Shown here one piece after another: positions 16,293-18,008 of a DNA stretch of 41,148 nt. The stretch comes from a virus. The notes under the pieces are model-generated. The model made no database searches and had not been told where the DNA came from. It saw only the letters and a list, made by a program, of their open reading frames with translations. How positions within the stretch are numbered: the stretch's first letter is position 1; every line of letters begins with the position of its first letter. A program made the translations under genes and the position numbers. The DNA lies in the UHGV virus genome UHGV-0181186; one strand, 5' to 3'.

Positions 16293-16369
16293 GCACCTAT
16301 AGCCCAACTGGTAGAGGCAGCAGACTTAGAATCTGCTCAGTGTGAGTTCGAATCTCTCTAGGTGTACCA
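16293..16369 (+). tRNA. tRNA with anticodon TAG (Leu by anticodon), short variable arm
   Basis: Acceptor gcaccta/taggtgt, anticodon arm agcaga-cttagaa-tctgct, discriminator A, CCA encoded; 77 nt is atypical for bacterial tRNA-Leu. Confidence 0.6.
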
Positions 16370-16376
16370 AATTAAT

Positions 16377-16452
16377 GCAGGTGTAGCAGAATGGTTATGC
16401 GGCTGACTCTTAATCAGTAAGACGATGGGTTCAATTCCCTCCACCTGTACCA
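16377..16452 (+). tRNA. tRNA-Lys (anticodon CTT)
   Basis: Acceptor gcaggtg/cacctgt, anticodon loop ctcttaa, CCA encoded; paralog of the tRNA at 14789. Confidence 0.7.
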
Positions 16453-16458
16453 AACATT

Positions 16459-16533
16459 GGGGATGTAGTTTACATGGTTAAAACATAAGTTTTGCAAACT
16501 TAAGTACAGGGTTCAATTCCCTGCTTCTCCACC
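16459..16533 (+). tRNA. tRNA-Ala (anticodon TGC)
   Basis: G3:U70 pair present, anticodon arm taagt-tttgcaa-actta, T-arm caggg-ttcaatt-ccctg, CCA encoded. Confidence 0.75.
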
Positions 16534-16540
16534 AATTAGT

Positions 16541-16615
16541 GCATCCATAGTTTAAACGGGAAAATTACAGTCTTCCAAACTGAGGTTGAGGGTTCGATTC
16601 CCTCTGGATGCTCCA
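16541..16615 (+). tRNA. tRNA-Trp (anticodon CCA)
   Basis: Acceptor gcatcca/tggatgc, anticodon loop cttccaa, T-loop ttcgatt, CCA encoded. Confidence 0.75.
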
Positions 16616-16621
16616 AACAAT

Positions 16622-16698
16622 GCTGCTTTCGTATAATTGGCTATTACACATCCCTTGTAAGGATGGAAATGCAGGTTCGAGTCCTGTGAGCAGCACCA
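16622..16698 (+). tRNA. tRNA-Thr (anticodon TGT)
   Basis: Acceptor gctgctt/gagcagc, anticodon arm catcc-cttgtaa-ggatg, T-arm gcagg-ttcgagt-cctgt, CCA encoded. Confidence 0.75.
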
Positions 16699-16699
16699 A

Positions 16700-16793
16700 T
16701 TCAGAGGTCAAGTGAAAGACCGCTTTGAGTCAACTGAAGACCGTAACAAATACCACGGAGTTGAGTTAGCGGCACAACTTCAGACCTCTTTCA
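16700..16793 (+). ncRNA. candidate structured RNA (nested inverted repeats) between tRNA-Thr and tRNA-Val
   Basis: Outer stem cagaggtc/gacctctg, inner stems ccgct/agcgg and tcaac/gttga; contains a gaagaccgtaacaaa segment related to the repeat-element motif; no tRNA fold. Confidence 0.35.
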
Positions 16794-16794
16794 T

Positions 16795-16869
16795 ACTCGC
16801 TTAGTTTATATGGTAAAACATCACCATTACAAGATGAAGAAAAAGGTTCAAGTCCTTTAGTGAGTACCA
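16795..16869 (+). tRNA. tRNA-Val (anticodon TAC)
   Basis: Acceptor actcgct/agtgagt, D-arm gttt…aaac, anticodon loop attacaa, T-arm aaagg-ttcaagt-ccttt, CCA encoded. Confidence 0.7.
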
Positions 16870-16870
16870 T

Positions 16871-16948
16871 GTTCCAGTATCCCAATTGGCAGAGGATGCA
16901 AGCTCAAACCTTGTATTAGTGACGGTTCGAATCCGTCTTGGAACACCA
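16871..16948 (+). tRNA. tRNA with anticodon CAA (Leu by anticodon), short variable arm
   Basis: Acceptor gttccag/ttggaac, anticodon arm gcaag-ctcaaac-cttgt, T-arm gacgg-ttcgaat-ccgtc, discriminator A, CCA encoded. Confidence 0.6.
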
Positions 16949-16953
16949 ATTTT

Positions 16954-17026
16954 GCAGGATTAGTTCAAATGGAAAGAGCAACAGTCTACGAAGCTGTTAA
17001 TAGGGGTTCGAATCCCTTATCCTGCG
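16954..17026 (+). tRNA. tRNA-Arg (anticodon ACG)
   Basis: Perfect acceptor gcaggat/atcctgc, anticodon arm acagt-ctacgaa-gctgt, T-loop ttcgaat; CCA not encoded. Confidence 0.7.
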
Positions 17027-17046
17027 CTAGATAAAAAGGTGATACT

Positions 17047-17289
17047 ATGCAAACATTAACAGTAGTTGAACATGAAAACTGTGAGAGTATTGAGTTTGTC
17101 AGGGTCATTGGTGTTGAACACCACATTTTCTTAAAAGTGGGATACTTATGTGACCCCGCTAGAGTAGAAAGATTTATACGTGATTGTTTTGGTGGTAGAC
17201 ATCTGAAGAGTGTTATTTTTGAGACAGTTTTACCAGAAGGTTTAGAAACGAATAATAACATTTACCTCCTTACGAGGATTAGACAATGA
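17047..17289 (+). CDS. hypothetical protein (first gene of a two-gene cassette inside the tRNA array)
   Basis: 80-aa ORF; AAGGTGA RBS; overlaps the start of the next gene. Confidence 0.55.
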   Translation: MQTLTVVEHENCESIEFVRVIGVEHHIFLKVGYLCDPARVERFIRDCFGGRHLKSVIFETVLPEGLETNNNIYLLTRIRQ

Positions 17290-17843
17290 GATACTTAAAG
17301 TATGCTTCATGGATTTTCTTAGCTTTGTTAGAGCCATTTGCAGCAATCTTAGCAGTTATCTTAGCACCTTTTGTAGTTCCATTCTACAGTGAGAAGAAAG
17401 GACACTTACCTTTCGGGTTCAGATGGATGGAGACATATGACAACCCAATTGATGGTGATGAAGGTCACGTTAAAAGATGGGCTAATATTAGATGGATTGG
17501 TAAGCTGGGTGTCTACATGCAGAGAGTTGGATGGCTCTGGAGAAACAAAGCTTATAACTTCTCTTACCATGTATTAGGAAGAGATGTAAAAGATGTTACT
17601 AAGTGGAAAGGTAATATCAACGTAAGTTCTGACCCCGAAGATAATCAGACAGGTTATCTCCTAATGTGGAACAGTAATGCTTGGGGATTATTCGCTTTTA
17701 TCCCATCAATTAAAATCTTTGGTAAACAATTTTACTGGAGAATTTATATTGGATGGAAACTAAAAAGTGTTGTCCCAGAAGAAAGAGCATTCTCAAGGGA
17801 AAGAGTTATGTTGGCATTCTTTATTCATCCACTGAGAAAGTAA
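17286..17843 (+). CDS. hypothetical membrane-anchored Trp-rich protein
   Basis: 185 aa; N-terminal hydrophobic helix (WIFLALLEPFAAILAVILAPFVVPF); many Trp residues; translationally coupled to the upstream ORF. Confidence 0.6.
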   Translation: MRYLKYASWIFLALLEPFAAILAVILAPFVVPFYSEKKGHLPFGFRWMETYDNPIDGDEGHVKRWANIRWIGKLGVYMQRVGWLWRNKAYNFSYHVLGRDVKDVTKWKGNINVSSDPEDNQTGYLLMWNSNAWGLFAFIPSIKIFGKQFYWRIYIGWKLKSVVPEERAFSRERVMLAFFIHPLRK

Positions 17844-17851
17844 AGATTTAA

Positions 17852-17927
17852 AGGGGATTAGTTTACAAGGTTAAAACCTCGGTCTTTGAAATCGAAGAAG
17901 TTGGTTCAATTCCAACATCCCCCGCCA
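17852..17927 (+). tRNA. tRNA-Gln (anticodon TTG)
   Basis: T-arm gttgg-ttcaatt-ccaac, anticodon arm tcggt-ctttgaa-atcga, CCA encoded; 1:72 mismatch. Confidence 0.65.
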
Positions 17928-17929
17928 AT

Positions 17930-18008
17930 GCTCCATTACTCCAATTGGCAGAGAGGCCAGACTTAAAATCTGTGTTATGTATCGGTTCGAATCCGATATG
18001 GAGTACCA
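17930..18008 (+). tRNA. tRNA with anticodon TAA (Leu by anticodon), short variable arm
   Basis: Acceptor gctccat/atggagt, anticodon loop cttaaaa, T-arm atcgg-ttcgaat-ccgat, discriminator A, CCA encoded. Confidence 0.6.

Follow-up and report, generated by a model that had tools for sequence, protein, structure and literature searches.

The 41,148-nucleotide (nt) virus genome UHGV-0181186, which we analysed over its whole length (the window), contains three transfer RNA (tRNA) genes with the leucine anticodons UAG, CAA and UAA whose variable regions span only 5–7 nt. These are real short-arm leucine tRNAs, neither misfolds nor other isotypes in disguise, and they exemplify a trait that is widespread among phages, common in phage tRNA clusters and found well beyond this genome. 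Type I tRNA-Leu, that is, tRNA-Leu with a short variable arm, is known from mitochondria and from one Streptomyces species; that Streptomyces exception aside, textbooks and recent literature to our knowledge treat the long variable arm as universal in bacterial tRNA-Leu. We consider it highly probable that the three genes are genuine type I leucine isoacceptors, leucylated by the host leucyl-tRNA synthetase (LeuRS) and serving the UUA/CUA-rich codon use of the phage. The window comes from a FelixO1-like myovirus (Felixounavirus, Ounavirinae); across the 5.6-kb tRNA region it is 94–98% identical to many Escherichia coli and Salmonella phages, Felix O1 included.

Structure and leucine identity of the three genes

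The initial annotation, made from hand folds, had described leucine anticodons, short variable regions and discriminator A in these three genes beside long arms in the Tyr and both Ser genes, and had left three explanations: class-I-like leucine isoacceptors, charging with another amino acid, or anticodons misplaced by the folding. ARAGORN returned exactly the same anticodons and coordinates (Table 1), and the Rfam tRNA model RF00005 (gathering threshold, 29 bits) matched each gene over model positions 1–71 of 71, with scores of 57.3, 44.0 and 47.5 bits for Leu(UAG), Leu(CAA) and Leu(UAA) and E-values of 1e-10 to 5e-7. The Rfam alignments placed anticodon loops at CUCAAAC and CUUAAAA, in agreement with ARAGORN, and inserted just 3–4 variable-region bases. 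Thus two independent programs place the anticodon identically, which disposes of misfolding, and neither pointed to a different isotype or an overlooked long arm.

In a cloverleaf parse, each of the three genes has 7/7 acceptor pairs, A73, an encoded CCA and the T loop UUCGAAU. The D arm reads GCCC-AACUGGUAGA-GGC in Leu(UAG), which also has U8-A9 and G1.U72, UCCC-AAUUGGCAGA-GGA in Leu(CAA), and CUCC-AAUUGGCAGA-GAG in Leu(UAA), again with G1.U72. Leu(UAG) has a single U.U mismatch in the T stem, and Leu(UAA) a C27.U43 mismatch. Class II tRNAs have variable regions of more than 10 nt that form a stem-loop; those of the three Leu genes have 5, 6 and 7 nt and no stem, and the same parse found the Tyr and both Ser genes long-armed, as had been described.

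Leucine identity in E. coli rests on A73, A15-U48, G18G19, A20a and tertiary pairs that join the D loop to the T loop, and does not depend on the anticodon or on the long variable arm, arm-deleted variants remaining active (Giege and Eriani review, PMC9976931). We scored this identity set on every parsed tRNA of the window and of the cellular and viral samples described below. The full set was present in 3/3 window Leu genes and in 0/22 of the other ARAGORN-called window tRNAs. Cellular long-arm tRNA-Leu genes carried it in 106/124 cases and viral short-arm ones in 39/60; it occurred in 0/58 cellular and 4/777 viral non-Leu tRNAs, all four of the latter being long-arm Tyr. Each window Leu gene has U8, A14, A15 and U48, the bases of the U8-A14 pair and the A15-U48 Levitt pair, and a 17-nt D arm with a 3-base-pair (bp) stem and the loop AAYYGGYAGA, which puts G18G19 in register and supplies A20a. 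The T-loop bases suit G18:U55, G19:C56 and U54:A58 in all three, as a matter of sequence compatibility only. A73 is shared with all unique short-arm Leu genes that we collected from the window, phage records and viral contigs (62/62).

The initial annotation had proposed a comparison with host tRNA-Leu. E. coli leuW (UAG), leuX (CAA) and leuZ (UAA) have the same anticodons as the phage genes, and these three and leuQPV of strain K-12 share with them the 17-nt D arm with its 3-bp stem and loop A14-A15-Y-Y-G18-G19-Y-A20a-G-A22, a variable region ending in G-U48 (the phage Leu(UAA) ends in UGU), A73 and an encoded CCA. The G1.U72 pair of leuZ recurs in the phage UAG and UAA genes. Unlike the phage genes, however, the host genes are 85–87 nt long and carry a 13–15-nt stem-loop arm where the phage genes have 5–7 unpaired nt, and the host core has G9 and G/A13.A22 in place of A9 and C13.A22. 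With the full LeuRS identity set and a host-type leucine D arm in all three genes, the first of the three explanations, class-I-like leucine isoacceptors, is the one that stands. “tRNA-Leu”, the name these genes already bear in hundreds of records, is the right annotation and needs no change.

A widespread phage trait

In a sensitive BLAST search, Leu(UAG) aligned without gaps and at nearly full length with annotated tRNA-Leu genes in phages of Mycobacterium, Streptomyces, Pseudomonas, Bacillus, Enterococcus, Acinetobacter and Enterobacter, and in a crAss-like phage. At nine matched loci, chosen by similarity, 19/20 tRNA-Leu genes were 74–78 nt long, and the Ser (84–95 nt) and Tyr (81–88 nt) genes were still long. 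Because these loci had been chosen by similarity, we ran a scan independent of arm length, using the pattern GGTAGA-N9-YTNARR-N{13,36}-GTTCRANYC, whose gap covers short and long arms alike, followed by ARAGORN; the viral sample was the first 120 IMG/VR stretches, and the cellular sample consisted of GTDB genomes searched with the same pattern. Among viral tRNA-Leu genes 43/168 (26%) had a variable region of 5–7 nt, all with A73, versus 0/119 among cellular ones (Fisher p = 1.5e-11). The short-arm fraction grew with the number of tRNAs in the viral locus, from 0/20 at loci with one tRNA through 6/45 (2–4 tRNAs) and 14/50 (5–9) to 23/53 (ten or more); the single-tRNA loci likely include host tRNA genes at prophage borders. 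In the other class II isotypes of the viral scan, short arms were found in 0/42 Ser and 1/17 Tyr genes. We detected no DNA homologue of the window Leu(UAG) in 5,426 complete E. coli genomes.

The short-arm genes fall largely into two designs. The first, which we call design A, is defined by A9, C13.A22, the variable region NNAGU, the T loop UUCGAAU, A73 and a Leu-type D loop; its core (A9 with C13.A22) was found in 40/62 unique short-arm Leu genes, all three window genes included, and its variable region is usually NNAGU, most commonly UCAGU. Leu(UAG) of the window has this consensus, Leu(CAA) a 6-nt version ending in AGU, and Leu(UAA) a 7-nt version ending in UGU. Design A genes lie mostly on contigs without a long-arm Leu gene. 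Genes of the second design (14/62) keep the long-arm core (G9, and G or A at position 13 opposite A22), have U-rich variable regions of 5–7 nt, and usually sit beside long-arm Leu genes. From these patterns we infer that the arm was probably lost more than once and that the remodelled tertiary core of design A may make up for its absence. The anticodon loop differs as well: Leu(UAG) has CUUAGAA, with A37, versus UUUAGGU, with G37, in the host, and position 37 is A in 17/28 viral short-arm, 13/52 viral long-arm and 1/70 cellular Leu(NAG) genes. Host G37 is methylated by TrmD; A37 in phage Leu(NAG) suggests independence from this m1G37 modification or a changed recognition of the anticodon loop.

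The window genes are also strongly conserved. Each shows at least 95% identity across some 250 Ounavirinae genomes; Leu(UAG) is 100% identical in many Felixounavirus records, Leu(CAA) is kept in 255 phage records at a coverage of at least 80%, and Leu(UAA) in 260. In an alignment of the 62 unique short-arm Leu genes, drawn from the window, nine unrelated phages and IMG/VR contigs, the short-arm cloverleaf was paired in 97.8% of cells, versus 35–45% when the partners were slid. Double-sided changes occurred in 20/21 pairs (462 cells in total), and the 15-48 pair itself covaries, being A-U in 59 genes and G-C in 2. Such conservation and compensatory change indicate that the three Leu genes are under selection.

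The closest chromosomal parallel is the type I tRNA-Leu(CAA) of S. coelicolor, which has a 5-nt variable loop and occurs beside long-arm tRNA-Leu and a single LeuRS (Fan et al., NAR 2019, PMC6614811). Its loop, ACAGC, resembles the phage consensus NCAGU. Unlike the phage genes, it is chromosomal and has C48 in place of U48; the window genes all end in U48 and so lack the 5-nt loop ending in C48 that marks the Streptomyces type. In S. coelicolor, A73 is no identity element, and charging needs a linker in the leucine-specific domain that is particular to Streptomyces; the paper does not mention phages (PMC6614811). In Streptomyces phage LilMartin and Pseudomonas phage 254 the loop is ACAGU, a single base away from ACAGC, the variable region of Mycobacterium phage Cali is GCAGU, and one viral contig (L114) has a variable loop identical to ACAGC, together with G15. 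A common origin of the actinobacterial chromosomal gene and design A is possible, judging by the sequence of this 5-nt loop alone.

Animal mitochondrial tRNA-Leu(UUR/CUN) likewise has a short variable region, with identity resting on A73 and A14 (PMC9976931). It is unlike the phage genes in being organellar, in having a mitochondrial LeuRS of its own and in its often loose structure; the D and T loops of the phage genes are canonical. According to PMC9976931, E. coli LeuRS can leucylate arm-deleted or minimal E. coli tRNA-Leu constructs (Larkin et al. 2002; Asahara et al. 1998), which stay active without the arm so long as they retain A73 and the D/T tertiary interactions. Made in the laboratory and assayed in vitro, these constructs have natural counterparts in the phage genes. 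Phages T4 and T5 carry tRNA-Leu genes that resemble those of the window in lying in coliphage tRNA clusters and in having a Leu-type D arm and A73, but theirs are long-armed (T4 UAA, 87 nt; T5 UAG, 85 nt). The long arms of these classical sets may explain why the trait is absent from the older literature.

Codon use, charging and competing explanations

In the 48 open reading frames (ORFs) of the window, leucine is encoded by TTA (29%), CTT (27%), CTG (14%), TTG (12%), CTA (11%) and CTC (6%). Published values of relative synonymous codon usage for the host and the related phage Sf14 are 1.06 and 1.63 for TTA, 0.43 and 0.69 for CTA, and 1.18 and 0.74 for TTG. TTA and CTA are thus commoner in this AT-rich phage than in its host, and TTG is not enriched. 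On this evidence the UAA and UAG genes fit a codon-supply model, the CAA gene less plainly.

Observed so far are the structure of the genes, their identity elements, their conservation with covariation, their confinement to phages and the codon usage. Proposed in what follows are that host LeuRS leucylates the tRNAs, that they serve on the ribosome, and why the arm was lost. The Leu genes would be transcribed within the polycistronic phage tRNA cluster, and host RNase P and 3′ processing enzymes would cut the tRNAs from these transcripts with CCA already encoded. Leu(CAA) lies 1 nt after tRNA-Val and Leu(UAA) 2 nt after tRNA-Gln; because the gaps from the Leu genes to neighbouring tRNAs are only 1–7 nt, we presume polycistronic processing. 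In the Felix O1 genome paper there is no mention of an aminoacyl-tRNA synthetase, so that the host (E. coli or Salmonella) LeuRS would have to charge the three tRNAs. It would read A73 together with the shape of the elbow and core, namely U8-A14, A15-U48, G18G19 and A20a in the Leu-specific D loop, and the D/T-loop pairs. The charged tRNAs would then decode UUA, UUG and CUA, and possibly more CUN codons by wobble.

Bacterial LeuRS having no need of the arm, phage lineages could have lost it. Ser tRNAs, with a synthetase that measures the arm, keep theirs, and so do 16/17 Tyr tRNAs; bacterial TyrRS also uses the arm. That Leu is short and Ser and Tyr are long matches which synthetases use the arm (PMC9976931). 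The simplest reading of arm loss is thus relaxed constraint: the arm being dispensable for LeuRS, deletions survive in fast-evolving phage genomes.

Several observations weigh against charging by host LeuRS and simple codon supply. E. coli LeuRS failed to charge the type I tRNA-Leu(CAA) of S. coelicolor and is characterised as restricted to type II tRNA-Leu (PMC6614811); its leucine-specific domain shows a preference for a large variable loop (earlier work cited in PMC6614811); and, according to PMC3561953, prokaryotic LeuRS uses its C-terminal domain to contact the long arm besides the elbow. The first of these is softened by position 48: the Streptomyces tRNA has C48 in place of the U48 on which E. 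coli LeuRS depends, and the window genes carry both A15 and U48. Further, Leu(UAG) has A37, unlike the host with G37, and a U.U mismatch in the T stem, and Leu(UAA) has C27.U43. Given A37 and the mismatches, the efficiency and reading-frame fidelity of the phage Leu tRNAs may differ from those of the host's, as may, given A37, the sensitivity of Leu(UAG) to anticodon-loop nucleases. Finally, since TTG is not enriched, codon supply alone leaves the CAA gene unexplained.

An alternative to relaxed constraint, compatible with leucine isoacceptance because it concerns why the design exists and not what the genes do, is that arm loss is an adaptation allowing leucine translation to continue when host long-arm tRNA-Leu is attacked, either by a host defence nuclease or toxin that recognises long arms or host-specific features, or by the phage itself as it degrades host tRNAs. 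We regard this as unlikely, though several findings would suit it: the confinement of the trait to viral sequences (43/168 versus 0/119 cellular), its climbing frequency with tRNA number in the locus (0/20 to 23/53), the remodelled core of design A (A9, C13.A22) and its habit of replacing long-arm Leu genes rather than joining them, and the change of G37 to A in Leu(NAG) (17/28 short-arm versus 1/70 cellular). It also fits the published idea that phage tRNAs evade anticodon nucleases through changes in the loop (PMC10264068), and eukaryotic Schlafens are reported to cleave type II tRNAs specifically. However, the literature searched revealed no nuclease or toxin from bacteria that targets long-arm tRNA-Leu in particular. 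Bacterial Schlafens were considered as such a long-arm-specific defence and rejected, those characterised so far (2026) cutting the anticodon arm or T loop with no type II preference. Ser tRNAs, just as long-armed, are short in 0/42 cases, which synthetase requirements explain more simply, and T4 and T5 thrive with long-arm Leu.

A more specific form of this idea would make short-arm Leu a phage countermeasure, still charged by LeuRS and invisible to a putative host or phage factor that recognises long-arm tRNA-Leu; we hold it to be improbable. The same low likelihood attaches to its extension, in which the core remodelling (A9, C13.A22) and the frequent change at position 37 would be part of the countermeasure and the factor would be a nuclease, a toxin or a modification-dependent system. 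If true, the countermeasure would be a bacterial counterpart of the eukaryotic Schlafen targeting of type II tRNAs.

It is far less likely that the three genes, despite their leucine anticodons, are class I tRNAs of another isotype with shifted anticodons, charged with another amino acid and recoding UUA, UUG and CUA. Class I shape with A73 is common to Ala, Ile, Lys, Met, Phe, Val and Thr tRNAs, and the CAA and UAA anticodons have A35-A36 in common with tRNA-Phe. A crude nearest-neighbour isotype test on the whole tRNA body, with the anticodon loop and variable region masked, placed Arg and Thr nearer to the window genes than long-arm Leu, but this test is not discriminating, since only about 10/25 window tRNAs put their own isotype first. 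In the same test, the class closest to the window Leu genes was other viral short-arm Leu genes, a result that says nothing on the descent of design A from long-arm Leu. The Leu-specific D arm and full identity set, present in 3/3 window Leu genes versus 0/22, 0/58 and 4/777 non-Leu tRNAs, argue against another amino acid, as do the lack of the Ala determinant G3:U70 in all three (0/3) and their anticodons, which are unsuited to synthetases that read the anticodon. In a 2025 paper on Sf14, tRNAscan-SE isotype models ranked Leu first for the three homologues (67.4, 49.1 and 60.2), in a set where only 12/26 Sf14 tRNAs match their own isotype model; neither that paper nor the Felix O1 genome paper, which lists the genes, mentions the variable arm. 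Moreover, UUA, UUG and CUA make up about 53% of leucine sites in the phage ORFs, so that recoding would be drastic, and standard-code translations of the phage proteins give ordinary Pfam matches.

Nor is it at all probable that the genes are unused in translation, as decaying pseudogenes or as tRNA-like decoys that would divert a host factor or bind it: small flaws (the T-stem U.U of Leu(UAG), C27.U43 of Leu(UAA)), single-sequence minimum free energy folding that did no better than shuffles, with unremarkable z-scores for the Leu genes and the Leu(UAA) cloverleaf not reproduced, and the presence of non-canonical tRNA-like RNAs in phage tRNA clusters, such as the element at 15271–15352 described below, are outweighed by near-identity in about 250 genomes, strong compensatory covariation in all four stems, an intact anticodon loop, T loop, A73 and CCA, anticodons that match codons heavily used by the phage, and the equally poor folding z-scores of the undisputed Tyr gene in the window.

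The tRNA cluster and the significance of short-arm tRNA-Leu

The three Leu genes lie in a tRNA cluster upstream of the terminase large subunit and portal genes (Table 1). A promoter-like site (13576–13605) and a terminator-like site (19367–19384) flank the cluster as consensus matches only, and the counts in the scan that found them were near shuffle expectation, so that transcription units are not established by it. The order of tRNA cluster, terminase large subunit and portal (window 13632–22733) is the same in unrelated phages with design A short-arm Leu, namely Pseudomonas phage 254, Acinetobacter phage 313 and Erwinia phage Prophecy, and in Bacillus phage P59 the cluster is followed by the portal gene.

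Table 1. Features of the tRNA region of UHGV-0181186 and of the genes downstream of it.
Feature	Position	Strand	Description
tRNA cluster	13632..19204	+	25 tRNAs called by ARAGORN (all +) and one tRNA-like element found by Rfam alone
tRNA-Tyr(GUA)	14190..14277	+	88 nt, 15-nt variable arm; internal long-arm comparator
D-armless tRNA-like RNA	15271-15352	+	Rfam 31.7 bits (15271-15349); missed by ARAGORN
tRNA-Ser(UGA)	15948..16037	+	90 nt, 20-nt variable arm; internal long-arm comparator
tRNA-Leu(UAG)	16293..16369	+	77 nt, short-arm (type I); variable region UCAGU (5 nt)
tRNA-Leu(CAA)	16871..16948	+	78 nt, short-arm; variable region AUUAGU (6 nt)
tRNA-Leu(UAA)	17930..18008	+	79 nt, short-arm; variable region GUUAUGU (7 nt)
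tRNA-Ser(GCU)	19032..19124	+	93 nt, 21-nt variable arm; internal long-arm comparator
Small ORFs scattered among the cluster tRNAs	within 13632..19204		HNH-like, DUF7338, DUF7217
Terminase large subunit gene	19649-21250		just downstream of the tRNA cluster
Portal gene	21267-22733		downstream of the terminase large subunit gene

All ARAGORN-called tRNAs of the cluster encode CCA except tRNA-Arg(ACG) (16954–17027), in which the discriminator G is followed by C and then TAG, and tRNA-Ser(UGA), which encodes only CC; these two would need the host CCA-adding enzyme. The first ARAGORN tRNA-Met (13884–13960) and tRNA-Tyr score below the Rfam tRNA gathering score, and this tRNA-Met has a 16-nt D arm (AGAGAAAGGGCGTCTC), A8-U9 instead of the usual U8, and 6/7 acceptor pairs. 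According to the Felix O1 genome paper, its Tyr and His genes were flagged as pseudo-tRNAs by tRNAscan-SE. One record labels three tRNAs “tRNA-OTHER”; considered as possible Leu genes, these proved to be the two Ser genes and the His gene. The ORFs inside the cluster (15367–15714, 17286–17843 and 18295–19029, all on the + strand) comprise one that weakly matches an HNH endonuclease and follows the D-armless element immediately, and one each for a DUF7338 and a DUF7217 protein.

The D-armless element combines a 7-bp acceptor stem with a 5-bp stem whose loop, CUUCUAA, holds the anticodon UCU (Arg); its T arm is normal, and A73 and CCA are present. A 7-nt linker, UAUCUCA, stands in place of the D arm, and a 23-nt segment, CGUUAAYCGAGUAAKUGGAGUAU, follows the anticodon arm. 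The element is present at full length in 263 phage records at 82–100% identity and is almost never annotated; its carriers span unrelated families and include Felixounavirus, T5-like Sugarlandvirus, phi92-like phages, Mydovirus, a T4-like Pectobacterium phage and 350-kb jumbo phages. We found no counterpart in the tRNA regions of T4 and T5. In Klebsiella phage AmPh_EK80 an HNH homing endonuclease gene likewise comes next after the element. An alignment of seven lineages revealed covariation in the acceptor stem and the anticodon stem, with double-sided changes in 10/17 pairs and 97.5% of cells paired, and in these lineages the linker, the anticodon loop and nearly the whole 23-nt segment are invariant. 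The element looks like a conserved non-canonical tRNA-Arg(UCU) or tRNA-like RNA, and it may be a decoy.

In the searchable literature, which takes in few subscription journals, we found no description of short-arm tRNA-Leu in phages, an earlier mention being possible, and no statement of a conserved short-arm design in phages or of its near-absence from cellular genomes. About a quarter of the tRNA-Leu genes on viral contigs lack the long arm, rising to some 40% in large phage tRNA clusters, and the short arm is thus a sequence marker that distinguishes phage-encoded from host tRNA-Leu. The phage genes are natural, strongly conserved substrates for testing whether an E. coli-type LeuRS uses short-arm tRNA-Leu in vivo, and they offer a concrete lead for tRNA-targeting defence and counter-defence. 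If charged by wild-type LeuRS, short-arm Leu tRNAs could also serve as scaffolds for genetic-code engineering.

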